A stretch of DNA of 64,000 nt from an uncultured Planctomycetota bacterium (lineage in GTDB: Bacteria > Planctomycetota > Planctomycetia > Isosphaerales > Isosphaeraceae): positions 1-64,000 of the forward strand of contig CAWJTV010000019.1 in assembly GCA_963845755.1 (NCBI GenBank). Direction: 5' to 3'. How positions within the stretch are numbered: the stretch's first letter is position 1; every line of letters starts with the position of its first letter. The translations under genes were made by a program, and so were the position numbers. Of this stretch, positions 7,035 through 37,752 are shown piece by piece. The notes beneath the pieces were generated by a model. It saw only the letters and a program-made list of their open reading frames with translations. It was not told the origin of the DNA and did not search any database.

Positions 7035-7667
7035 TTGCTGCATGCGTTGCTTCCTGGCCGTCTTCCTGGTCGCGCTCTCCATACCCGCCTTTGGGATGAC
7101 GCCGTGCGCGTCGTCGGCATCTCCGACGGCGACACGATCACGGTCCTCACCGCGGCGAAGAAGCAGGTCAAGGTCCGGCTCTGGGGGATCGACGCGCCGG
7201 AGACGGGGCAGGACTTCGGCAGCCGCGCCAAGCAGGGTGCCGCCAGCCTCGCGTTCGGCAAGCAGGTCACCATCCGCGTCCGCGATACCGACGGCTACGG
7301 TCGCACCGTGGCCGAGGTGATCCTGCCGGACGGCCGCTCGATGAACCGCGAGATGGTCGGGCAAGGGATGGCCTGCTGGTACAAGCAATACGCCCCGCGC
7401 GACGCCGATCTTGCCCGGCTCGAGGCCGAGGCGAAGGCAGCGAGGATCGGGCTATGGAGCCAGCCGAATCCCGTCCCGCCATGGTACTGGTGGCATGGCG
7501 AGGGCGTTCCTGAGACGGCGGACGTTAAGGGGAACCGACGAAGCCGTGTCTCTCACAAGCCGAGCTGCCGGGCCGCAGCGGTAAGGAGCGAGAAGAATAG
7601 GGTGACCTTCGCCAGCGAGGCGGACGCGGAGAAGGCCGGGTATCGGAAGGCAGGGGATTGTCGGTAG
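7035..7667 (+). CDS. Thermonuclease (SNase) family protein with C-terminal Ada-like metal-binding tail; N-terminal signal probably in a shifted frame
   Basis: VVGISDGDTI, VRLWGIDAPE, DGYGRT, ARIGLWS, and tail GNRRSRVSHKPSC...GYRKAGDC. The ORF at 7042 gives signal-like MRCFLAVFLVALSIPAFG. Confidence 0.85.
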   Translation: MLHALLPGRLPGRALHTRLWDDAVRVVGISDGDTITVLTAAKKQVKVRLWGIDAPETGQDFGSRAKQGAASLAFGKQVTIRVRDTDGYGRTVAEVILPDGRSMNREMVGQGMACWYKQYAPRDADLARLEAEAKAARIGLWSQPNPVPPWYWWHGEGVPETADVKGNRRSRVSHKPSCRAAAVRSEKNRVTFASEADAEKAGYRKAGDCR

Positions 7668-7691: not shown

Positions 7692-7766
7692 TGGCGAGGG
7701 GATGGGATTCGAACCCATGTCTCCGGGGTTCTAGCCCGGTGAGTTGACCGCTACTCTACCCCTGCG
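7692..7766 (-). tRNA. tRNA-like sequence, anticodon AGA, imperfect acceptor stem (possible pseudo-tRNA)
   Basis: Minus strand reads GCAGGGG TA GAGT AGCGGTCA ACTC A CCGGG CTAGAAC CCCGG AGAC ATGGG TTCGAAT CCCAT CCCCTCG CCA. The D, anticodon and T arms pair perfectly. Confidence 0.65.
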
Positions 7767-7796: not shown

Positions 7797-7904
7797 TCAC
7801 GGCTTCTTGGGCGAAGTGGCAGACTTCACCGGAACGGCCTTCGGAGCCGCAGCCTTCTTGGGCTTCTTCTTTTCCTTGGTCTGCGAATGGTTGCCTTTGC
7901 CCAT
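7797..7904 (-). CDS. 35-aa Lys/Ala/Pro-rich small protein
   Basis: MGKGNHSQTKEKKKPKKAAAPKAVPVKSATSPKKP*, translated by hand; below the ORF-track cutoff. Confidence 0.5.
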   Translation of the reverse strand: MGKGNHSQTKEKKKPKKAAAPKAVPVKSATSPKKP

Positions 7905-8038
7905 CGTCGTCGCCTTGATTTGGGGACTAGGTGGATATCACAAGAGTGTCCGTCCGGTGAAGTGCATCTACAAAGCGGCGTGACTCCCCGCGATGATAGT
8001 GCTGTCGGGGCCAGTGGTCCCGTCAGGGAGATCACGCC

Positions 8039-8404
8039 GTGTCTCGAAGCCGAACCATCGATCTACGATGGAATGCCCTCCTCAACGATTTCCGCAGGAG
8101 CGGTCTGACTCAAGCCGAGTTCTGCCGCCTTCGCCAAATCTCGCTTCACTCCTTCCGAAAGCATCTCTACCAGCCCGCCCCGGCCGATCGCACTCCCAGC
8201 GACGATCGTCCTTTCGCCAGTGCCGACCGCCATTTCCTCCCGGTCACTATCCTTCCCGATCCCATCCCGCCGAGCGCCGCCTCGGGACCCCACCTCGAAC
8301 TCATCCTCTCCAACGGACGTCGGATCGCCGTCGCCCCCGGATTCGACCCCCTGACCCTCCGCCATCTCATCGCGGTCGTGGAGGGACGCCCATGTTCGGA
8401 CTGA
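8039..8404 (+). CDS. tnpA: IS66 accessory protein TnpA
   Basis: SGLTQAEFCR HTH; FLPV...LELILSNGRRI; first ORF of the element. Confidence 0.85.
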   Translation: MSRSRTIDLRWNALLNDFRRSGLTQAEFCRLRQISLHSFRKHLYQPAPADRTPSDDRPFASADRHFLPVTILPDPIPPSAASGPHLELILSNGRRIAVAPGFDPLTLRHLIAVVEGRPCSD

Positions 8405-8726
8405 GCGCCGCGGTCCGCGTCTATCTCGCCAAACAGCCGGCCGACATGCGCAAGAGCTTTGACGGCCTGGCCGCCCTGGCATCAGGCAGCCTGGCGCTAG
8501 ATCCCCTCTCCGGTCATCTCTTCGTCTTCGTCAACAAGCGCCGCGACCGCATCAAGATCCTGTACTGGGATCGCGATGGCCTGGCCGTCTGGGCCAAGAA
8601 GTACGAGTAAGACTGCCCCCATCCTCTCGACTTTACAGGAATCGTCGGACACCCCCATAATCGCGCTGGCCGGCCTGATGCGGCTGGCGGAATGGATCGA
8701 AGCTCAACACCCCGTGATCCAAGGAG

Positions 8727-8924
8727 GTGCCCCATGTCGCGAGACGCCGGACTCGTTGCTCCCCCCCGCGCACGTCGGTCGTTCGGCCGTCGGTGCTGGA
8801 CCAACTCTGGAGCCGACTGACGGACGAGCAGCGTCAACGAACGCTGCTCACCCTCAGCGACATCGTGACTCGACAACTCGGCGCGCCTCGCACCGCTCAG
8901 GAGGTGCGCGATGAAATCTCGTGA
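8727..8924 (+). CDS. small protein overlapping the recombinase start (possible accessory or directionality factor; start uncertain because of a C-run)
   Basis: ...LDQLWSRLTDEQRQRTLLTLSDIVTRQL...EVRDEIS*; GGAGG before ATG 8734; conserved in copy 2. Confidence 0.5.
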   Translation: MPHVARRRTRCSPPRTSVVRPSVLDQLWSRLTDEQRQRTLLTLSDIVTRQLGAPRTAQEVRDEIS

Positions 8925-11093
8925 TGCACGGGCCGTCAATCGCACGGACAGATCAATCGACGAGACTCCATCGACCTCCACCTTCGGCCAGAGGTCGAGC
9001 TCGAAGATTGGCGATCGGCATCTCGATCGACTCGCGATCGTGTACGTGCGGCAGTCGACGCCGCAGCAAGTCCTCGAGAACCGCGAGTCTCGCGAACGGC
9101 AGTATGCTCTGGCGCAGTTCGCGCAACGGCTCGGTTGGCCCGCAGAGCGGGTGGTGATCATCGACGAGGATCAGGGCCACGGCGGCAAGTTGACCGACCA
9201 TCGCACGGGCTTCCAGCGGTTGATGACGGAAGTGAGCTTGAACCACGTGGGGATCGTGCTGGGGTTGGAGCTTAGCAGGGTGTCGCGGTCGAATACCGAA
9301 TGGCATCGTCTTATCGACGTCTGCGGCATCTTTCGCACCCTGCTATGCGATCAAGATGGCGTCTACGATGCCTTGGACAGTAACGATCGTCTCCTCCTTG
9401 GCATGAAAAGCGCAATGAGCGAATACGAATTGATTACTATGTACAATCGTTTGCTTCGAGGCAGTCGGAACAAAGCGGAGCGCGGCGAGCTGTTCCTGGC
9501 CGTTCCGCTGGGATACCTCAAGACGGCCACGGGCGAGATCATTCAAGAGCCTGACGAGCAGGCGCGTGGAATGATTCAGTTGGTGTTCGAGAAGTTCGAG
9601 GAACTCGGTTCCGCCTACGCGGTCTTCCGTTACCTGGTCGTGAACAACCTGCAACTGGGATTTCGCCGTCATCGCGGTGGGCGCATTGGGGAGCTGGAGT
9701 GGAAGCCAGCCTCTCCCAGTCGAGTCCTGTCGATCTTGCGACACCCCATCTATGCGGGGGCATACGCTTATGGCCTACATCGCGCGGGGACGAAGAATCC
9801 CACGACGGGTCGAGCCGAAGGCGGCAAGTGGTTCGTGCCGCCCGAGGAGTTGGCCGTGTTCCTGCCGGATCGGCTCCCAGCGTACATTAGCTGGGATCGC
9901 TATCTCGCGAATCAGGAACGCCTCAAACAGAATCGATCGCTCCACGACACGCGGGGCGTGCCCAAACGCGGCGAGGCCTTGCTGCCCGGCCTGGTCGTCT
10001 GTGGGAAATGCGGCCGCCACATGACGACGCGATACAAGGCCGACAAGAAGCCCGGCTATCACTGCGGCGAGTATTGGCGGCTGGCCCTGGACGAGCCGTG
10101 CGGGTGCATCTCGGCAAAGACGCTGGACGACCTGGTCGCGAAGGAAGTGCTCCGCGCGTTGGAGCCCGCTGCGCTGGACCTGAGCCTACGCGCGATCGAG
10201 AACGCCGAGCGAGAGGCGCAAGCGCCTCCACGACCATTGGCGTCAGACTCTGGAACTGCGCACGCCAGGAGGTCGAGAGGGCCGAGCGGCAGTATCAGGC
10301 CGTGGAGCCCGAGAACCGACTCGTGGCGCGGACACTCGAGGCGCGGTGGGAGGACGCGCTGAAGAAGCAGCGTCAAACGGAGGAGGATTACCATCGGTTC
10401 CTGACGAGACTGCCGGCGACGCTGAACGACGCCGATCGCCAACGGATTCGATCGCTCTCCGAGAGCGTCGCCGCGCTCTGGCACGCACCAGGCACGTCGG
10501 CGATGGATCGCAAGCAGATCGTGCGCTGCGCGGTGGAGCGGGTCATTGTCGTGGCCGACAAGGCGACTGAGCTCAACGAGGTAACGATCGTTTGGCTCGG
10601 CGGCATGACAACCCAACAGCAGGTCGCGAGGCCAGTCGGCAGGTATGAGCAATTGAAGGATTTTCGACGCCTCACGGAACGAATCAAGCAACTCCATCGA
10701 GAAGGACTTCACCTGTCGCAGATCGCCGCGCGGCTCAATGCCGAGGGCTTCGTCCCGCCGCGCCGTCGCGGCGTGTTCACGGCGGGAACGATCGGGGCGT
10801 TGGTCCGTGAACTTGGGCTGGTCGGAGAACTGTTCCGCGACGACCTCGTCGGCCAGGACGAGTGGTGGATCCCCGACTTGGCCGGGAAACTCGGCGTCAT
10901 CGCCCAGAAGGTCCATTATTGGATCAAGCAGGGTTGGGTCCATTCGCGGCGTACGCCTTCGGGAAAGCATCTGATCGTGTGGGCCGACAAGGACGAGGTT
11001 CGTCGCCTGCGACAACTGGCCAGACGAAAGAACTCCTGGATCGCCGCCCGGCACCCTGAGTTGGTCGTTCCCAAGGACCGTCCCGACCGGTAG
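8911..11093 (+). CDS. Large serine recombinase (resolvase + recombinase + Zn ribbon + coiled coil)
   Basis: YVRQST, IIDEDQG, ELSRVSRS, PLGY, CGKCG...YHC. Indels at 10210-10260 differ between the two copies and the consensus reads through to 726 aa. Confidence 0.9.
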
Positions 11094-11409
11094 CAAGAGA
11101 GGCCGCCGATTCGTGGCGGCAGTAGCCCAACGTCTCAGGATTTGTGTAACGCCACAAGAACGAGGGTCCTGTGATGCCAGCATCAAGAGGCTCGAACGCG
11201 GCACCTTCCGCATCCCGGACGCGGCGGCCGATCGCGTCGAGATGACCACCGCCGAACTCGCCGCCCTCCTGGCCGGCATCGATCTGGACAAGGCCCGACG
11301 GCGCGTCCGCTACTCGCGGCCCGCCACTCCCCTTCGAAATTCGGAGAATAATCTACCGACAGGAGCATAATGCGCCAACAATCGAGCACCCGTCAACGTA
11401 GTATAGGGT

Positions 11410-12985
11410 ATGATCACCCTCGCGGACCCACTCCCGGACGACCTGGAGGCGGCCCATCAGCTCATCCGTGAGCTGCTCAAGTCGCTCGCCCAGCAGGTCC
11501 ATCTCAACGAGAAGCTCCAGCACCAGCTCGAGCAGCTCCTCCGCCAGCGCTACGGTCCCAAAGGGGAGCGGATCGACCCGGCCCAGCTCTTGCTCTTCGC
11601 CCGGGAGATCCTGGAGCAGGCCGAGGCGGCGCCGACACCCGCCCCGACCCCGGAGCCGGCCCCGGCCCCGACGCCCGCTCCGAGTGCGGCCCAGAAGAAG
11701 GGCCACGGACGCAAGCCGTTGCCGGCGAGCCTGCCCCGAGTGCCGGTCTTGCACGACGTCCCGCCCGAACAACGCACTTGCCCCGACTGCGGCGCCGAGC
11801 GCACCTGCATCGGCCGGGAAGTCCGCGAGCAACTCGAATTCATCCCCGCCCGCCTGGTCATCCTCGAACCCATCCGCCCCAAGTACGCTTGCCAGGACTG
11901 CCAGGCCAACGTCGTGATCGCCGACGTGCTCCCCGAGCCGATCGACAAGGGCCTGCCAGGCCCGGGGCTGCTGGCTTACGTCGCCGTCAGCAAATATGCC
12001 GATCACTTGCCGCTCTATCGCCTCGAGGGAATCCTCGATCGCTCGGGCGTCGAGTTGTCGCGGTCAACGATGTGCGACTGGATGGCCACGATCGCCGATC
12101 TGCTCAAGCCGATCGTCGATCTGATGCTGAAGAAGATCCTCAGCTCCAGGGTCGTCCAGAACGACGACACGACGGTGCCGGTGCAGGACCACGACGGCAA
12201 GGGGATCAAGACCGGCCGGCTCTGGGTCTCCGTCGGCGACCGCGGCCATCCTTACGTGGTCTATCGCTACACGCCGGACCGCAGCGCCACCGGGCCCCGG
12301 GAGATCTTCAAGGACTTCCAGGGTTATCTCCAGGCCGACGCCTATTCGGCCTACGACGGCCTGTACAAGTCGGGCGAGATTATCGAGGTCGGCTGCATGA
12401 TGCACGCGCGACGGAAGTTCTACGAGGCGCGGACCGTCAACCCGCAACGGTCCCATCAGGCGCTGGCATGGATCAGCCTGCTCTACGACGTCGAACGCGA
12501 CGCCAAGAAGCGCGCAGACCGCGGACTACGAGGCCTTCGTCGCGTTCCGGCACGAACTGCGAAACGAGCGATCGCGTTCGATCTTCGACAAGTTTCACGC
12601 CTGGCTGGAAGCCGAGCAGCCCAAGGTTCTGCCCAAGAGTCCGATCGGCGAAGCGATCCAGTATGCCTTGAACCATTGGGAGGCCCTGAAGCGTCCGTTG
12701 GAGGCCGGGTTCCTCGAACTGGACAACGGTGCGTGCGCGGGCGCGTTCAAGCCCGTGGCGCTGGGACGGAAGAACTGGTTATTCGCGGGGAGCGACCAGG
12801 GAGGCCAGACGGCGGCCGTGTTGATGAGCTTGTGCACGACCTGCAAGAATCTGGGGATCGACCCCCAGGCTTACCTCCGCGATGGGCTCGATCGGATCAG
12901 CACGCACCCGGCGAAGCGGATCGACGAACTGCTGCCGGACCGCTGGCAGGAGTTGCACCAGGCCGGCGCCGACGGGACTGAGTGA
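11410..12985 (+). CDS. tnpC: IS66 transposase TnpC (frameshift near 12517)
   Basis: CPDCG, KYADHLPLYR, DDTTV, LQADAY, CMMHARRKF, LGRKNWLF, IDELLP. Confidence 0.92.
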
Positions 12986-13239
12986 CCGCACCCGAGCCCC
13001 GCGCTCCTCGTCACCCCGGACGAGCGCGGGGCGATTGCGCGCGCCCCTCAAGGTTTGTCCCGCCCCAAGTTCGTCTCGGCCCGGCGCGAGCGCGGGATGA
13101 TCGCGTGCGCCGAGCACAGTGAAAGAATCAAGACGGTGCCCCGAACATCATCTCACGCCCGTGAACCGCTTTGAAGATGTGGTTCACCGGACGCACTCCT
13201 CACAAGAAGCATATCCTATCGCATGGCGGAGACGTCGGG

Positions 13240-13732: not shown

Positions 13733-15103
13733 TCAGAGCATGGGCACGCCCGACCGATCGAACAAAGGCTCAATTCGGTCGTCTCGTCGTAGTCTCTGTT
13801 CTAGATCGGTTGAAGGAGTAAATGACCACGTCTTTCCAATCTTCCGCTTATGCATCAGCCCACGATCGACGAGTTCCATTATGTCGCTTCGTGCCGTCTC
13901 GTAAACGACGTTGTGGCTACTGCGATGAAACTCAATCGTGTAACTCTGGCCCGGATGTCGCAGCGCAAAGCTTATAAGGTCTCGTTGCCGATGGTTGAGA
14001 GTCGTGAACCCTCGAAGTTCCTTCTGGGCCGTTGCAAGTTGATTGGCGCGTCTCTGGATATATAAATGTAATTCATCGATAGCCCTGCGAATGACATCCG
14101 CATGATAGAGCAGAAAATAAGTCAGATCGTTTTCGTCTGTTTCACAGTGGAGAAAAGCTCGCCCGTACCTGACCGGAGCCTTCAAAATGATTCGCGATAT
14201 GGTTATGTATTCAAATAGCCAATAACCCTGCTTCAGCATCGACCAATAGAACAAAGCTCGCGCAGTCCTCCCGTTTCCGTCAACAAACGGATGGTCGTAT
14301 GCTAACCAGAAATGAAGGACAATCGATCGCAACATTGGGTGGATGAAACCATCAGGTATTTGGTTATTCGCGAATTTGCACATCTCGTCGAACCGTTGGT
14401 CTAGTTGCTCGGCTGGCGGAGGAACGTGGAACACGTTTCCCGTATCATCTCCGACGACGATGTTCTCGTCCGTGCGGCGGAAACGACCTGCACCCGATGC
14501 ATCGTTCAGAGTCCTATCTGTTATCATTCTGTGAACATCACAGATTAAATCGCGAGTAATATCCTTATTTTTGATTTCGAGAATGTATTGCATCGTTTGG
14601 TAGTTATTCAGGATCATCCTCTCGCTACGGTCCCGTGGCTTCCGACCCTCGCGTATCATTTTCTTGGCCACTTCCCTGGTCGTAGATGCACCTTCCAACT
14701 GGCTCGAGGTTATCGATTCCTCGATAAGCGAACGTACCAGATAGCTATCCCGCGTTTCTGGGTTCGTTATGGGCTCGGGCTGCTGGATAACCCCGCGAGC
14801 CAAGGAATCCACATGATGAAGACATTCCGGCAAAGGGTCTGGTAGGTTGAATACGAAAGGGACTCCGGCCTTGTCCACAAGCGGGATTTGTTTTGTCGGC
14901 GTTCGTCGGACCTTCAAGCCGAACCACCACGCTCTATGATCGAGCCCCGAGGGCGGGGTTAAATACCGCAGCTTATCCCAATGGACATACCTTCCCCCAA
15001 CGGTTCCTTCGTTGACTTTGCGTACAATGTCAAAGATCGATTCATTGGCCCCAAATTGTTGCCACAATTTAGCTTGTGGCGGCGGAGAGACGGGCATTCT
15101 CAC
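13733..15103 (-). CDS. Fic family protein
   Basis: Fic motif HPFVDGNGRTAR; SSQLEG inhibitory-type motif; C-terminal HTH; visibly AT-richer than its flanks. Confidence 0.92.
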   Translation of the reverse strand: MRMPVSPPPQAKLWQQFGANESIFDIVRKVNEGTVGGRYVHWDKLRYLTPPSGLDHRAWWFGLKVRRTPTKQIPLVDKAGVPFVFNLPDPLPECLHHVDSLARGVIQQPEPITNPETRDSYLVRSLIEESITSSQLEGASTTREVAKKMIREGRKPRDRSERMILNNYQTMQYILEIKNKDITRDLICDVHRMITDRTLNDASGAGRFRRTDENIVVGDDTGNVFHVPPPAEQLDQRFDEMCKFANNQIPDGFIHPMLRSIVLHFWLAYDHPFVDGNGRTARALFYWSMLKQGYWLFEYITISRIILKAPVRYGRAFLHCETDENDLTYFLLYHADVIRRAIDELHLYIQRRANQLATAQKELRGFTTLNHRQRDLISFALRHPGQSYTIEFHRSSHNVVYETARSDIMELVDRGLMHKRKIGKTWSFTPSTDLEQRLRRDDRIEPLFDRSGVPML

Positions 15104-31222: not shown

Positions 31223-31435
31223 TTAACTACAGACGGGCTATGTGGCAAGCCAGAGAAATGCTCGAAGAATTGCCCCTGTGCAATCGCCTGATCAGGAACC
31301 TCCATGAAACCTTGCTCGCCGGAGTTCGTGGCCATGATAAGGCGCGTGGTAAATTTCGGAAGATCCAGAATTACATCGGCGCCTATGGTGTCTCCATTGA
31401 TAAGGCTCGATTCATCCCCGTTGTCCCCGAACAAG

Positions 31436-31688
31436 GAGTGCGTCCGGTGAACCACATCTTCAAAGCGGTTCACGGGCGTGAGATGATGTTCGGGGCACCG
31501 TCTTGATTCTTTCACTGTGCTCGGCGCACGCGATCATCCCGCTCGCGCCGGGCCGAGACGAACTTGGGGCGGGACAAACCTTGAGGGCGCGCGCAATCGC
31601 CCCGCGCTCGTCCGGGGTGACGAGGAGCGCGGGGCTCGGGTGCGGTCACTCAGTCCCGTCGGCGCCGGCCTGGTGCAACTCCTGCCAG
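31436..31688. repeat. tandem duplication of the IS66 right terminus (~253 bp)
   Basis: GAGTGCGTCCGGTGAACCACATC... starts at both 31436 and 31689. Confidence 0.85.
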
Positions 31689-31900
31689 GAGTGCGTCCGG
31701 TGAACCACATCTTCAAAGCGGTTCACGGGCGTGAGATGATGTTCGGGGCACCGTCTTGATTCTTTCACTGTGCTCGGCGCACGCGATCATCCCGCGCTCG
31801 CGCCGGGCCGAGACGAACTTGGGGCGGGACAAACCTTGAGGGGCGGGCGCAATCGCCCCCGCTCGTCCGGGGTGACGAGGAGCGCGGGGCTCGGGTGCGG

Positions 31901-33474
31901 TCACTCAGTCCCGTCGGCGCCGGCCTGGTGCAACTCCTGCCAGCGGTCCGGCAGCAGTTCGTCGATCCGCTTCGCCGGGTGCGTGCTGATCCGATCGAGC
32001 CCATCGCGGAGGTAAGCCTGGGGGTCGATCCCCAGATTCTTGCAGGTCGTGCACAAGCTCATCAACACGGCCGCCGTCTGGCCTCCCTGGTCGCTCCCCG
32101 CGAATAACCAGTTCTTCCGTCCCAGCGCCACGGGCTTGAACGCGCGCGCGCACGCACCGTTGTCCAGTTCGAGGAACCCGGCCTCCAACGGACGCTTCAG
32201 GGCCTCCCAATGGTTCAAGGCATACTGGATCGCTTCGCCGATCGGACTCTTGGGCAGAACCTTGGGCTGCTCGGCTTCCAGCCAGGCGTGAAACTTGTCG
32301 AAGATCGAACGCGATCGCTCGTTTCGCAGTTCGTGCCGGAACGCGACGAAGGCCTCGTAGTCCGCGGTCTCGCGCTTCTTGGCGTCGCGTTCGACGTCGT
32401 AGAGCAGGCTGATCCATGCCAGCGCCGATGGGACCGTTGCGGGTTGACGGTCCGCGCCTCGTAGAACTTCCGTCGCGCGTGCATCATGCAGCCGACCTCG
32501 ATAATCTCGCCCGACTTGTACAGGCCGTCGTAGGCCGAATAGGCGTCGGCCTGGAGATAACCCTGGAAGTCCTTGAAGATCTCCCGGGGCCCGGTGGCGC
32601 TGCGGTCCGGCGTGTAGCGATAGACCACGTAAGGATGGCCGCGGTCGCCGACGGAGACCCAGAGCCGGCCGGTCTTGATCCCCTTGCCGTCGTGGTCCTG
32701 CACCGGCACCGTCGTGTCGTCGTTCTGGACGACCCTGGAGCTGAGGATCTTCTTCAGCATCAGATCGACGATCGGCTTGAGCAGATCGGCGATCGTGGCC
32801 ATCCAGTCGCACATCGTTGACCGCGACAACTCGACGCCCGAGCGATCGAGGATTCCCTCGAGGCGATAGAGCGGCAAGTGATCGGCATATTTGCTGACGG
32901 CGACGTAAGCCAGCAGCCCCGGGCCTGGCAGGCCCTTGTCGATCGGCTCGGGGAGCACGTCGGCGATCACGACGTTGGCCTGGCAGTCCTGGCAAGCGTA
33001 CTTGGGGCGGATGGGTTCGAGGATGACCAGGCGGGCGGGGATGAATTCGAGTTGCTCGCGGACTTCCCGGCCGATGCAGGTGCGCTCGGCGCCGCAGTCG
33101 GGGCAAGTGCGTTGTTCGGGCGGGACGTCGTGCAAGACCGGCACTCGGGGCAGGCTCGCCGGCAACGGCTTGCGTCCGTGGCCCTTCTTCTGGGCCGCAC
33201 TCGGAGCGGGCGTCGGGGCCGGGGCCGGCTCCGGGGTCGGGGCGGGTGTCGGCGCCGCCTCGGCCTGCTCCAGGATCTCCCGGGCGAAGAGCAAGAGCTG
33301 GGCCGGGTCGATCCGCTCCCCTTTGGGACCGTAGCGCTGGCGGAGGAGCTGCTCGAGCTGGTGCTGGAGCTTCTCGTTGAGATGGACCTGCTGGGCGAGC
33401 GACTTGAGCAGCTCACGGATGAGCTGATGGGCCGCCTCCAGGTCGTCCGGGAGTGGGTCCGCGAGGGTGATCAT
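31901..33474 (-). CDS. tnpC: IS66 transposase TnpC, copy 2 (frameshift near 32425)
   Basis: Near-identical to 11410-12985. Confidence 0.92.
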
Positions 33475-33513
33475 ACCCTATACTACGTTGACGGGTGCTC
33501 GATTGTTGGCGCA

Positions 33514-36488
33514 TTATGCTCCTGTCGGTAGATTATTCTCCGAATTTCGAAGGGGAGTGGCGGGCCGCGAGTAGCGGACGCGCCGTCGGGCCTTGTCCAG
33601 ATCGATGCCGGCCAGGAGGGCGGCGAGTTCGGCGGTGGTCATCTCGACGCGATCGGCCGCCGCGTCCGGGATGCGGAAGGTGCCGCGTTCGAGCCTCTTG
33701 ATGCTGGCATCACAGGACCCTCGTTCTTGTGGCGTTACACAAATCCTGAGACGTTGGGCTACTGCCGCCACAAATCGGCGGCCTCTCTTGCTACCGGTCG
33801 GGACGGTCCTTGGGAACGACCAACTCAGGGTGCCGGGCGGCGATCCAGGAGTTCTTTCGTCTGGCCAGTTGTCGCAGGCGACGAACCTCGTCCTTGTCGG
33901 CCCACACGATCAGATGCTTTCCCGAAGGCGTACGCCGCGAATGGACCCAACCCTGCTTGATCCAATAATGGACCTTCTGGGCGATGACGCCGAGTTTCCC
34001 GGCCAAGTCGGGGATCCACCACTCGTCCTGGCCGACGAGGTCGTCGCGGAACAGTTCTCCGACCAGCCCAAGTTCACGGACCAACGCCCCGATCGTTCCC
34101 GCCGTGAACACGCCGCGACGGCGCGGCGGGACGAAGCCCTCGGCATTGAGCCGCGCGGCGATCTGCGACAGGTGAAGTCCTTCTCGATGGAGTTGCTTGA
34201 TTCGTTCCGTGAGGCGTCGAAAATCCTTCAATTGCTCATACCTGCCGACTGGCCTCGCGACCTGCTGTTGGGTTGTCATGCCGCCGAGCCAAACGATCGT
34301 TACCTCGTTGAGCTCAGTCGCCTTGTCGGCCACGACAATGACCCGCTCCACCGCGCAGCGCACGATCTGCTTGCGATCCATCGCCGACGTGCCTGGTGCG
34401 TGCCAGAGCGCGGCGACGCTCTCGGAGAGCGATCGAATCCGTTGGCGATCGGCGTCGTTCAGCGTCGCCGGCAGTCTCGTCAGGAACCGATGGTAATCCT
34501 CCTCCGTTTGACGCTGCTTCTTCAGCGCGTCCTCCCACCGCGCCTCGAGTGTCCGCGCCACGAGTCGGTTCTCGGGCTCCACGGCCTGATACTGCCGCTC
34601 GGCCCTCTCGACCTCCTGGCGTGCGCGTTCCAGAGTCTGACGCCAATGGTCGTGGAGCGCTTGCGCTCTCGCTCGGCGTTCTCGATCGCGCGTAGGCTCA
34701 GGTCCAGCGCAGCGGGCTCCAACGCGCGGAGCACTTCCTTCGCGACCAGGTCGTCCAGCGTCTTTGCCGAGATGCACCCGCACGGCTCGTCCAGGGCCAG
34801 CCGCCAATACTCGCCGCAGTGATAGCCGGGCTTCTTGTCGGCCTTGTATCGCGTCGTCATGTGGCGGCCGCATTTCCCACAGACGACCAGGCCGGGCAGC
34901 AAGGCCTCGCCGCGTTTGGGCACGCCCCGCGTGTCGTGGAGCGATCGATTCTGTTTGAGGCGTTCCTGATTCGCGAGATAGCGATCCCAGCTAATGTACG
35001 CTGGGAGCCGATCCGGCAGGAACACGGCCAACTCCTCGGGCGGCACGAACCACTTGCCGCCTTCGGCTCGACCCGTCGTGGGATTCTTCGTCCCCGCGCG
35101 ATGTAGGCCATAAGCGTATGCCCCCGCATAGATGGGGTGTCGCAAGATCGACAGGACTCGACTGGGAGAGGCTGGCTTCCACTCCAGCTCCCCAATGCGC
35201 CCACCGCGATGACGGCGAAATCCCAGTTGCAGGTTGTTCACGACCAGGTAACGGAAGACCGCGTAGGCGGAACCGAGTTCCTCGAACTTCTCGAACACCA
35301 ACTGAATCATTCCACGCGCCTGCTCGTCAGGCTCTTGAATGATCTCGCCCGTGGCCGTCTTGAGGTATCCCAGCGGAACGGCCAGGAACAGCTCGCCGCG
35401 CTCCGCTTTGTTCCGACTGCCTCGAAGCAAACGATTGTACATAGTAATCAATTCGTATTCGCTCATTGCGCTTTTCATGCCAAGGAGGAGACGATCGTTA
35501 CTGTCCAAGGCATCGTAGACGCCATCTTGATCGCATAGCAGGGTGCGAAAGATGCCGCAGACGTCGATAAGACGATGCCATTCGGTATTCGACCGCGACA
35601 CCCTGCTAAGCTCCAACCCCAGCACGATCCCCACGTGGTTCAAGCTCACTTCCGTCATCAACCGCTGGAAGCCCGTGCGATGGTCGGTCAACTTGCCGCC
35701 GTGGCCCTGATCCTCGTCGATGATCACCACCCGCTCTGCGGGCCAACCGAGCCGTTGCGCGAACTGCGCCAGAGCATACTGCCGTTCGCGAGACTCGCGG
35801 TTCTCGAGGACTTGCTGCGGCGTTGACTGCCGCACGTACACGATCGCGAGTCGATCGAGATGCCGATCGCCAATCTTCGAGCTCGACCTCTGGCCGAAGG
35901 TGGAGGTCGATGGAGTCTCGTCGATTGATCTGTCCGTGCGATTGACGGCCCGTGCATCACGAGATTTCATCGCGCACCTCCTGAGCGGTGCGAGGCGCGC
36001 CGAGTTGTCGAGTCACGATGTCGCTGAGGGTGAGCAGCGTTCGTTGACGCTGCTCGTCCGTCAGTCGGCTCCAGAGTTGGTCCAGCACCGACGGCCGAAC
36101 GACCGACGTGCGCGGGGGGAGCAACGAGTCCGGCGTCTCGCGACATGGGGCACCTCCTTGGATCACGGGGTGTTGAGCTTCGATCCATTCCGCCAGCCGC
36201 ATCAGGCCGGCCAGCGCGATTATGGGGGTGTCCGACGATTCCTGTAAAGTCGAGAGGATGGGGGCAGTCTTACTCGTACTTCTTGGCCCAGACGGCCAGG
36301 CCATCGCGATCCCAGTACAGGATCTTGATGCGGTCGCGGCGCTTGTTGACGAAGACGAAGAGATGACCGGAGAGGGGATCTAGCGCCAGGCTGCCTGATG
36401 CCAGGGCGGCCAGGCCGTCAAAGCTCTTGCGCATGTCGGCCGGCTGTTTGGCGAGATAGACGCGGACCGCGGCGCTCAGTCCGAACAT
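33514..36488 (-). pseudogene. tnpB: IS66 TnpB copy 2, split by the recombinase element
   Basis: Same junctions as copy 1 (TCTTG at 33696-33700 and 36281-36285). Confidence 0.9.
33791..35970 (-). CDS. Large serine recombinase, copy 2
   Basis: Near-identical to 8911-11093; 1-bp indel near 34660. Confidence 0.9.
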
Positions 36489-36841
36489 GGGCGTCCCTCC
36501 ACGACCGCGATGAGATGGCGGAGGGTCAGGGGGTCGAATCCGGGGGCGACGGCGATCCGACGTCCGTTGGAGAGGATGAGTTCGAGGTGGGGTCCCGAGG
36601 CGGCGCTCGGCGGGATGGGATCGGGAAGGATAGTGACCGGGAGGAAATGGCGGTCGGCACTGGCGAAAGGACGATCGTCGCTGGGAGTGCGATCGGCCGG
36701 GGCGGGCTGGTAGAGATGCTTTCGGAAGGAGTGAAGCGAGATTTGGCGAAGGCGGCAGAACTCGGCTTGAGTCAGACCGCTCCTGCGGAAATCGTTGAGG
36801 AGGGCATTCCATCGTAGATCGATGGTTCGGCTTCGAGACAC
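36476..36841 (-). CDS. tnpA: IS66 TnpA, copy 2
   Basis: Same translation as 8039-8404. Confidence 0.85.
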   Translation of the reverse strand: MSRSRTIDLRWNALLNDFRRSGLTQAEFCRLRQISLHSFRKHLYQPAPADRTPSDDRPFASADRHFLPVTILPDPIPPSAASGPHLELILSNGRRIAVAPGFDPLTLRHLIAVVEGRPCSD

Positions 36842-37752
36842 GGCGTGATCTCCCTGACGGGACCACTGGCCCCGACAGCACTATCATCGCGGGGAGTCAC
36901 GCCGCTTTGTAGATGCACTTCACCGGACGGACACCGAACAAGTTGAGGACGGGATGAGTCATTGGGAGAAGTTTCTTCATGCCCCCATGCCAGATGTGCT
37001 CGTTCAACTCGCCATCGTCCATGCAGAGTTCGAATCACTTCACCCATTCTTGGATGGAAATGGTCGCATTGGCAGAATCGTCATTCCTTTGTTTCTATAT
37101 GCAAGAAACCAATTGCATGCGCCTATGTTTTACCCGAGCGAGCACCTAGAAGCCAATCGACAGGAATATTGCGACCGCTTGCTAGCCGTGTCACGGGACG
37201 ACGATTGGACTGGCTGGTGCTGTTTCTTCCTCGACGCCCTGATCCAACAAGCACGCCAAAACGCAAACAAGACCCGCAAGATCTTGGACCTCTATGAGTC
37301 GCGAAAAGACCAGATTCCCTCCGTCACGCGCTCACCCCATGCCATCAAGGCTCTGGATTTTATCTTTAAGACTCCGGTCTTCAACGCGAAGACATTTGTC
37401 AATGAGTCGCGTATACCGGCTCCCACGGCTCGCCGAATTCTCAACGTGTTGGCCGATAGAAAGTTGCTAAGAACGATCCGCCAGGCTAGCGGCGCCGTCC
37501 CGCAATCTACGCGTTCTCTGAACTGCTGAATATTACCGAGGGGAGGACGATCATTTGATGCTCGATTTTGGGAGGCCAAAACGCTTTGACGCTCATAAAG
37601 TCCCAAAAGTGAGCGTCAATAAAACTTGCCGCGCATGACTGAGCGTCAACAGAGACCAGCAGGGTGCTACATCAGCGCACTAGGCTTGCCGGGTTCCCTT
37701 GTTTTTATCCATCCTGCGTTCTTTGACATCCCGCACGCATCGCACGGGCGGT

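Follow-up and report, generated by a model that had tools for sequence, protein, structure and literature searches.

Evidence for a site-specific large serine recombinase mini-element within the tnpB gene of IS66 insertion sequences

The window analyzed here comprises 64,000 nucleotides from the start of contig C19 (CAWJTV010000019.1) in the assembly of an uncultured Planctomycetota bacterium (GCA_963845755.1; 14.27 Mb, 49 contigs, 87.9% complete, with indel noise) and carries an IS66-family insertion sequence (IS) in which the tnpB gene is split by a mini-element encoding a large serine recombinase (LSR; Table 1). The host element has the tnpA-tnpB-tnpC gene order, the terminal inverted repeats, and the 8-bp target duplication of the IS66 family. 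The insert consists of a small open reading frame (ORF) and the LSR gene only, with no cargo gene in the ORF list or among Pfam matches. Comparison with copies from the same genome and from other assemblies makes it well supported that the insert is an autonomous, site-specific mini-element that would home to a conserved tnpB motif and hitch-hike on IS66.

The sequence CAAGA is present at both junctions between tnpB and the insert (8595-8599 and 11184-11188). The gene is cut exactly between positions 62 and 63 of the Pfam profile, with no residue lost or gained, such that the two pieces (69 + 60) add up to a TnpB of 129 amino acids, and on the NCBIfam profile IS66_TnpB they cover positions 1-60 and 61-90. 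A previous reading made from the letters of the window (the sequence-only reading) had described a ~2.6-kb unit flanked by CAAGA, the exact removal of which would give a 129-residue TnpB. The coordinates and the repeat were confirmed, the restored protein was corroborated by the split of the Pfam match (positions 2-62 and 63-100), and the same junction was found in eight copies in the genome and at 14 loci of 12 other assemblies, a recurrence that rules out chance.

The LSR has the domain order catalytic, Recombinase, and zinc ribbon (PF00239, E = 5.5e-16; PF07508; PF13408), followed at the C-terminus by ~170 extra residues with a weak winged-helix match, a helix-turn-helix extension. R47, Q48, and S49 of the catalytic motif VYVRQS(49)TPQQ are invariant among eight aligned homologues, and the gene has its own Shine-Dalgarno sequence. 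The best NCBIfam match, XisF, scored 72 bits against a cut-off of 375, the only match in a phmmer search of solved structures was the resolvase catalytic domain 3guv (E = 2.7e-5), and no Pfam match to DUF4368 was found at E-values up to 0.01. With 726 amino acids and the LSR domain order, the enzyme differs from the IS607-type small serine recombinases with a MerR-like domain.

The sequence-only reading was correct in listing a small ORF and an LSR gene as the content of the insert, and it missed that the LSR gene of this copy is broken by two 1-nt insertions (10215 and 10257). Both are private to this copy among the eight in the genome, and neither appears in the short-read contigs of X1, X3, and X5 (run data being Logan contigs of four runs, X1, X3, X5, and X6, from three studies), and a 1-nt insertion near 12515 in tnpC is likewise private to the window copy and absent from contigs; for these reasons the indels are read as assembly noise. 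As assembled, the LSR is frameshifted in seven of the eight genome copies, with frameshifts that differ from copy to copy. An intact ORF of 726 amino acids is present in one copy (C20:716045-718225, P0001), an intact LSR ORF was found in nine loci, and tnpC is intact as an ORF of 524 amino acids in the composite copies on contigs C21 and C22.

A search of the source genome found the 2.58-kb unit in eight copies at 99.6–100% identity and in one at 97%. All eight near-identical inserts occupy the same position in the same IS66, while the ninth has been truncated on the left by a rearrangement and terminates on the right at the same tnpB site in a 95.5%-identical IS66. All 18 matches to PF05717 in the genome fall in tnpB genes associated with an LSR (eight split pairs, the C-terminal half from the diverged copy, and a single tnpB on contig C9), and no IS66 of the window type lacking the insert was found in the assembly. 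The eight composites occur at different loci with 8-bp target duplications of the IS66 type, and the insert has thus most likely been multiplied as part of IS66. The composite on C22 has the duplication GCTCACGC, while in two inverted composites on C20 the repeats GGCGGCTC and GACCAGTT are exchanged, which indicates an inversion between the two copies. The composite at 7946-13198 is flanked by the 8-bp repeat TCACAAGA, shifted on its right side by a single additional C, and the right end of the second window composite adjoins an additional IS66 right-end fragment (31434-31688).

Several loci of the source genome show further rearrangement or divergence. Window positions 7900-8599 align with C40:79921-80620 such that the left flank beyond the IS end is identical and the right flanks are different, a pattern suggestive of a duplication, of recombination between the copies, or of a join made in assembly. 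A rearranged tandem is located at C13:343105-351972, where the tnpC of a composite is cut at the equivalent of window position 12270 and joined to position 37 of the 97%-identical insert within the 95.5%-identical IS66. The tnpB on C9 begins at profile position 15 (..SFDGL), with tnpA-like sequence before it and tnpC after it, and directly upstream lies a 35%-identical LSR with an internal stop (C9:4527-6894, minus strand, L013); the LSR/tnpB junction there may represent a second insertion site in tnpB. For the LSR homologue on C48 (L014), inspection by eye, with no family search made, recognized no mobile-element gene among the surrounding ORFs.

A scan at one genome per species yielded 24 related loci, of which 19 contain the same kind of element (family A), with the same ends and with LSR identities of 56–83%. 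Fourteen of the 19, from 12 assemblies, are inserted at the Trp-x-Lys|Arg-Leu-Glu codon boundary of tnpB, three complete elements (L027, L028, L029) occupy unrelated sites, and two (L026, L033) could not be judged; thus, one site accounts for 14 of the 17 assessable copies, with three off-target. In all tnpB-inserted copies the LSR is co-directional with tnpB. The sequence-only reading had proposed surveying homologues for target preference and had named insertion at unrelated sites as the observation to weigh against an element of this kind; a single tnpB boundary was recovered in 14 of the 19, and unrelated sites were used by a minority only (3 of 17 assessable copies). No family A element was found in 400 other Planctomycetota genomes searched, 17 of which hold only relatives at 33–45% identity.

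The relationship between inserts and hosts argues for movement of the element between IS66 lineages. The LSR is 67–83% identical to that of the window where the host TnpC is only 35–60% identical, and in two cases near-identical inserts occupy diverged hosts within one genome (L020/L021, inserts 99.3% identical, IS66 arms 81% and ~64%; L019/L022, inserts 99.7% identical, host arms 75% and 81%). Occupied and empty sites also coexist, with 11 uninterrupted tnpB (eight identical in score) and two occupied in G002, seven uninterrupted and two occupied in G005, and three uninterrupted (two of them frameshifted) and one occupied in G003. A comparison of the occupied L021 with the empty L057 (arms 94.7% and 95.9% identical) revealed a difference of a single exact 2587-bp insertion, and an empty junction also occurs in a contig of run X6. 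Near-identical inserts in diverged hosts, the coexistence of empty and occupied sites, and the use of one site by 14 of the 19 copies bear out the earlier suggestion of an element that parasitizes insertion sequences.

Among the uninterrupted genes, L055 (G001:C19:2972121-2972624) is frameshifted by seven additional bases, AAGCAAA, located exactly between the Lys and Arg codons; the bases resemble the first five plus the last two of the element and may be the scar of an imprecise loss. Some of the empty tnpB sites (L048, L054, L056) read YYRRLE or WYRQLE instead of W.KRLE, and may be variants that escape the element.

Alignment of the junctions made it possible to narrow the crossover. The usual attL reads host-NAAG|AAGY and the usual attR ...ATCAAG|(C/A)G-host, and the base that follows AA belongs to the element in attL but to the host in attR. 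In the off-target copies L027, L028, and L029, as well as in L036, AA is the sole sequence common to attL and attR, which shows AA to be the obligatory shared core; crossover would take place in the AA of the Lys codon. Because the off-target copies share only AA, the CAAGA of the window is read as C-AA-GA, with the C and the GA due to chance or to partial attP/attB likeness; the 5-bp flank of the sequence-only reading is present at both junctions, with only its AA obligatory. Empty and occupied copies differ by the element alone, without a target duplication, as would match conservative recombination at a 2-bp core.

The reconstructed attP reads TGTGATGCCA-N4-TC before the core and GAAGYNCGAG...ACTGCCCCCAT...CTTTACA after it, with a TGTAA dyad 36–40 bp from the core on both sides. 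Comparison of the junctions found no dyad symmetry in attB, where conservation is inseparable from coding constraint. The right P arm contains the palindrome TGATGC-CA-GCATCA reported in the sequence-only reading, which is indeed present at the right junction, though relatives retain just the first half, TGATGCCA. A functional hairpin at this position was rejected, as the second half varies among relatives.

At the left end of the element, both hexamers of the promoter-like site are conserved across 11 family A loci, which align over 140 nt without gaps, and the element probably carries its own promoter and a two-gene operon. An apparent conserved upstream peptide (PIISLAGL..) was rejected as coding in favor of conservation at the DNA level, the stretch covering the promoter hexamers and the Shine-Dalgarno sequence, and an alternative upstream frame (8576-8911) had no Pfam match. 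The small ORF, which has no Pfam or NCBIfam match, has a conserved core (..LDQLW..LT..QRQ.TL.TLS.IV.RQL..) and a mean column identity of 64% in an alignment of 13 rows. Its last 41 codons are gap-free in 11 loci, with variability highest at the third codon position (0.19/0.225/0.341).

The start of the small protein involves a frame offset. In none of 15 loci is an ATG with a strong Shine-Dalgarno sequence in frame with the conserved small peptide; the offset is 2 (-1 frame) in ten loci, among them L024, L035, and L037 from short-read assemblies, and 1 in five loci from assemblies in which the cytosine run or the sequence around it is shorter by one base. Three further loci have GTG for ATG and the same frame geometry, and among near-identical copies the run length is C6 or C7. 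As judged from these alignments, the C7 run is a candidate site of -1 ribosomal frameshifting or transcriptional slippage, or a phase-variable tract, that would meter the small protein.

Modelling of the 65-residue ORF product with the full LSR gave scores of 0.65, 0.65, and 0.64, compared to 0.00 for the best of three controls, with a partner pLDDT (predicted local distance difference test) of 57–59 and at least 70% contact agreement between runs. In the benchmark, 116 of 157 solved complexes scored this high, as did 2 of 215 mismatched pairs; the counts are approximate, since own alignments were used. The predicted interface joins residues 23-52 of the small protein with LSR residues 412-435, 499-540, and 561-567, directly C-terminal to the zinc ribbon. 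Phage directionality factors act in this region of their integrases, and from the model the small protein is a putative recombination directionality factor (RDF) that would bind the coiled-coil base of the LSR.

Relatives of the LSR were found in genes of other mobile elements. Each of the four copies of family B splits a different DDE_Tnp_1-type transposase gene; among the pieces that match the profile, two left ones stop at position 163 and a right one begins at 167, and all four junctions read ..RW.(I/V)|E with a core of GA, taken to be in the catalytic Glu codon of the transposase. Family C is antisense to its target gene, and two of its three copies split a group II intron reverse transcriptase (RT) at RVT_1 position ~78, in a D(I/L)xxxF|D motif with a core of TT. 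A protein search of PLSDB plasmids returned 461 records with homologues (33–45% identical), most of them from rhizobia, including those of Rhizobium (n = 124), Sinorhizobium (n = 99), and Bradyrhizobium (n = 76), annotated merely as ‘recombinase family protein’, and all 11 plasmid loci examined abut or split a mobile-element gene.

In a quick tree search, supported by Shimodaira-Hasegawa-like approximate likelihood ratio test (SH-aLRT) values only and without bootstrap, the LSRs group by target, with SH-aLRT values of 100 for family A and for the istB, istA, and tnpC pairs. Nine distant Planctomycetota LSR loci (L060-L068) had no clean split gene in their flanks; in L064, L065, L066, and L068 a DUF5372 plus helix-turn-helix module lies upstream, with rve, IS91, or AAA_22 genes in the vicinity. 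The window element would represent a single lineage within a broad LSR clade whose subclades each have as their target a conserved motif in a gene belonging to another mobile element. In the supplement of Durrant et al. 2022, 6 of 1069 LSR target genes have ‘transposase activity’, compared to 2 of 908 random genes, and the passages and supplements of that study available here do not mention IS66, PF05717, DDE_Tnp_1, or RVT_1 as targets.

Within a sister clade (L064-L068, L083, L085, L086, L089), the LSR gene is preceded by a DUF5372 gene and usually also by a helix-turn-helix gene. A literature search found no mention of DUF5372.

Several known systems resemble the element in part. The clostridial transposons Tn4451/Tn4453 (TnpX) and Tn5397 (TndX) are moved by a large serine recombinase. 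As in these transposons, the LSR is the sole mobility enzyme, recombination appears conservative with a 2-bp core and no target duplication, a circular intermediate would be expected, and there is some relaxed use of multiple sites (3 of the 17 assessable copies off-target). A TndX-like subfamily is named in Durrant et al. 2022, where DUF4368 is present in 63% of the multi-targeting clade. The window element differs from the TnpX/TndX transposons in its length of 2.6 kb, the lack of a cargo (resistance) gene and of DUF4368, the placement of 14 of the 17 assessable copies at one site, the co-encoded small partner, the C-terminal helix-turn-helix extension, and a target that is a coding motif of another mobile element.

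The skin element (SpoIVCA) and SPbeta (SprA/SprB) of B. subtilis and the fdxN element of Anabaena (XisF) are LSR elements that interrupt a gene and excise to restore it. The window element is similarly located inside an ORF that exact excision would rebuild, and its small partner may set directionality, but the split gene is that of a multicopy transposon rather than a single-copy host developmental gene that must be restored in a terminal cell, and the element itself is very small, occurs in many copies, and moves from one unrelated host to another; no sign of programmed excision was found in the contigs or the assembly. The phage serine integrases phiC31 Int and Bxb1 Int act with the directionality factors gp3 and gp47, respectively. 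The order of catalytic, recombinase, and zinc ribbon domains with a presumed coiled coil after them, an attP longer than attB, and a factor that is modelled at the coiled-coil base are shared with these integrases, whereas the absence of a phage, the ~170 extra C-terminal residues, and an attP TGTAA dyad 36–40 bp out, beyond the usual half-sites, are not. By analogy, inteins, introns with homing endonucleases, and group II introns in mobile-element genes also land in the most conserved codons of widespread genes; unlike these homing elements, the window element involves no RNA or protein splicing, and its target stays broken unless the DNA excises.

Collectively, the insert is very probably an autonomous, cargo-free LSR mini-element of ~2.59 kb that homes to the conserved motif of IS66 tnpB and hitch-hikes on IS66, with excision presumed to be assisted by an RDF. 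The comparisons show the element to integrate conservatively and co-directionally at the Trp-x-Lys|Arg-Leu-Glu codons, a motif that all IS66 TnpB proteins retain and that provides landing sites across diverse IS66 elements, and in the source genome the inserted element appears to be carried along by IS66 transposition. Binding of the small protein to the coiled-coil base would allow the element to excise as a circle and precisely restore tnpB, while the -1 shift at the C7 run would be needed for the small protein and would set the ratio of factor to integrase. A full-text literature search found no published description of an LSR element in IS66 tnpB. Such elements would represent a new layer in bacterial mobile DNA, site-specific ‘parasites of parasites’ landing in the most conserved codons of other elements, that may silence or gate insertion sequences and bear on the control of IS load. 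They would also constitute compact serine integrases with a short, conserved, and multicopy natural attB, a putative built-in directionality factor, and possible recoding control.

A number of observations weigh against this interpretation, beginning with excision. In run X6, which belongs to a different study, one contig (depth 5; shorter side 53 letters) connects 8594 with 11184, skipping 2589 nucleotides with five letters that fit either side, and thereby confirms the attB predicted by the sequence-only reading. However, the IS66 parts are deep in this run (19–265) and the insert is hardly covered; as the sample is almost without the insert, the empty-site contig is attributed to an unoccupied relative and not to excision. 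Of the empty and circle junctions that the sequence-only reading had suggested searching for in reads, only the former was present in contigs, as the circle (attP) junction was absent from the contigs of X1, X3, X5, and X6, which cannot show rare forms, and from the assembly (0 matches). A junction search of the assembly returned 0 attP-like and 0 attB-like sequences, compared to 8 attL controls. In principle, each of the eight composites could have arisen by an independent integration into an empty IS66 copy rather than by transposition of the composite. Transposition reportedly requires all three IS66 ORFs, and if TnpB is needed, the spread of the composite with no intact tnpB in the 87.9%-complete assembly is unexplained. 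The directionality-factor role proposed for the small protein comes from a structure model, for a protein with no family match and an ambiguous start codon, and many of the related loci come from binned metagenomes, in some cases on contigs only 2–3 kb long.

A more elaborate version, which must be considered unlikely, is a two-tier system in which the split tnpB silences the IS, a slip at the C7 run makes the factor, the LSR excises, IS66 jumps, and the circle re-enters every new tnpB, with the whole multi-phylum LSR clade living only in, and gating, the conserved motifs of other mobile elements (IS66 tnpB/tnpC, DDE transposases, IS21 istA/istB, group II intron RT). If true, this would explain the full occupancy of tnpB despite multiplication of the composite.

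That the insert is a domesticated regulator, which silences IS66 via the split tnpB, activates it when the LSR and its factor excise the insert, and re-silences new copies when the circle re-integrates, appears improbable; an excision switch of IS66 activity was the other possibility raised in the sequence-only reading. Excision would rebuild the exact 129-residue TnpB, an RDF-like partner is modelled on the LSR, and every tnpB of the source genome is occupied, yet the composite multiplied; the eight identical and recently multiplied IS66 of G002 are empty, and the single occupied copy of that type is ~5% diverged, which fits an insertion that blocks IS66. The contigs and the assembly, however, contain no excised form, the element also lands in non-IS pseudo-sites (L027-L029), and movement between unrelated IS66 hosts, together with sisters that target many unrelated mobile-element genes, are the marks of a selfish element.

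It is very unlikely that the LSR cassette is a passenger fixed as cargo in one IS66 lineage and no longer mobile on its own, with all copies in the source genome derived from IS66 transposition. Though all eight genome copies share an identical IS66 context and the LSR is frameshifted in seven of the eight as assembled, the frameshifts vary by copy and those of the window copy are absent from short-read contigs, so that they look like assembly errors, and elsewhere the near-identical inserts in diverged hosts beside empty sites contradict this explanation for the family. An assembly artefact, or the integrase remnant of a prophage or integrative island, has a negligible probability even in an 87.9%-complete assembly with indel noise, being already contradicted by a 2.59-kb unit that has the same ends in at least 13 independent assemblies and in the contigs of four runs from three studies, and by an insert without phage or conjugation genes.

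Table 1. Features of the window composite and its insert, of sister families, and of plasmid targets (window positions unless a contig or locus is given)
Feature	Location	Strand	Remarks
Composite: IS66-family IS (~2.66 kb own DNA) plus LSR insert	7946..13198	+	Ends from alignment of eight genome copies
Imperfect terminal inverted repeats of composite			Left begins GTGTCCGTCCGGTGAA; right (reverse complement) begins GTGCGTCCGGTGAA
IS66 tnpA, 121 aa	8039..8404	+	NCBIfam IS66_ISAeme5_TnpA, E 5.4e-12
tnpB, N-terminal 69 codons	8392..8598	+	Ends ...GLAVWAK; Pfam PF05717 (TnpB_IS66) positions 2-62 of 101, E 2.7e-24
Inferred crossover dinucleotide AA in attL	8596..8597	+	First two bases of Lys codon
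LSR mini-element, 2,589 bp	8598..11186	+	Limits ambiguous inside CAAGA
Promoter-like site TTTACA-18-CATAAT	8632..8661	+	Left end of element, facing operon; 10/12 consensus matches
Conserved Shine-Dalgarno AAGGAGGTG plus ATG (8734)	8721..8736	+	Same frame as LSR ATG
Small ORF, 65 aa as listed	8727..8924	+	End overlaps LSR start by 14 nt
Conserved C7 run	8761..8767	+	Between ATG and small-protein frame (-1 frame); candidate recoding or phase-variable site
LSR gene, 726 aa when intact	8911..11093	+	Resolvase 42-193, Recombinase 221-341, Zn_ribbon_recom 357-413
attP right-end P arm	11146..11184	+	Distal TGTAA, then TGTGATGCCA-N4-TC beside core; consensus of 12 right junctions
Inferred crossover dinucleotide AA in attR	11185..11186	+	
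tnpB, C-terminal 60 codons	11188..11370	+	Begins RLERGTF; PF05717 positions 63-100 of 101
IS66 tnpC (transposase)	11410..12985	+	LZ_Tnp_IS66, zf-IS66, DDE_Tnp_IS66 domains
Second composite copy in window	31687..36934	-	LSR insert at 33701-36280
Family B, 2.63-kb element, four copies (95–99.6% identical)	L039-L042, e.g. L040:3579-6207		One Gemmataceae assembly
Family C, 2.46-kb element	C11:965045-967508 (L015:4045-6508), C26 (L016), C6 (L017)		Source genome
Plasmid target IS701 DDE_5			Streptomyces
Plasmid target IS21 istB			~position 206 of 238; Bradyrhizobium (both halves seen), Microvirga
Plasmid target IS5 DDE_Tnp_1			Position 164; Leptolyngbya
Plasmid target IS66 tnpC			~position 268 of 284; R. 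phaseoli; Novosphingobium (only C-terminal piece seen)
Plasmid target IS21 istA			Between rve and Mu-C domains; S. meliloti, Caballeronia; element is a DUF5372-HTH-hyp-LSR module
Plasmid target IS66 tnpB			Position 92 of 101; B. barranii
Plasmid target group II intron RT			RT piece from RVT_1 position 13 (Cupriavidus) or 35 (Nostoc)

The neighborhood of the composite contains a few further features. A tRNA-Ser (anticodon AGA) was predicted by ARAGORN on the minus strand at 7693-7766, 180 bp left of the IS66 end; at 74 nt it is short for a serine tRNA. Inspection by eye recognized a staphylococcal-nuclease-like GIDAPE motif in a neighboring ORF of 210 amino acids (7035-7667, plus strand) and a Fic motif, HPFVDGNGRTAR, in one of 456 amino acids (13733-15103, minus strand).

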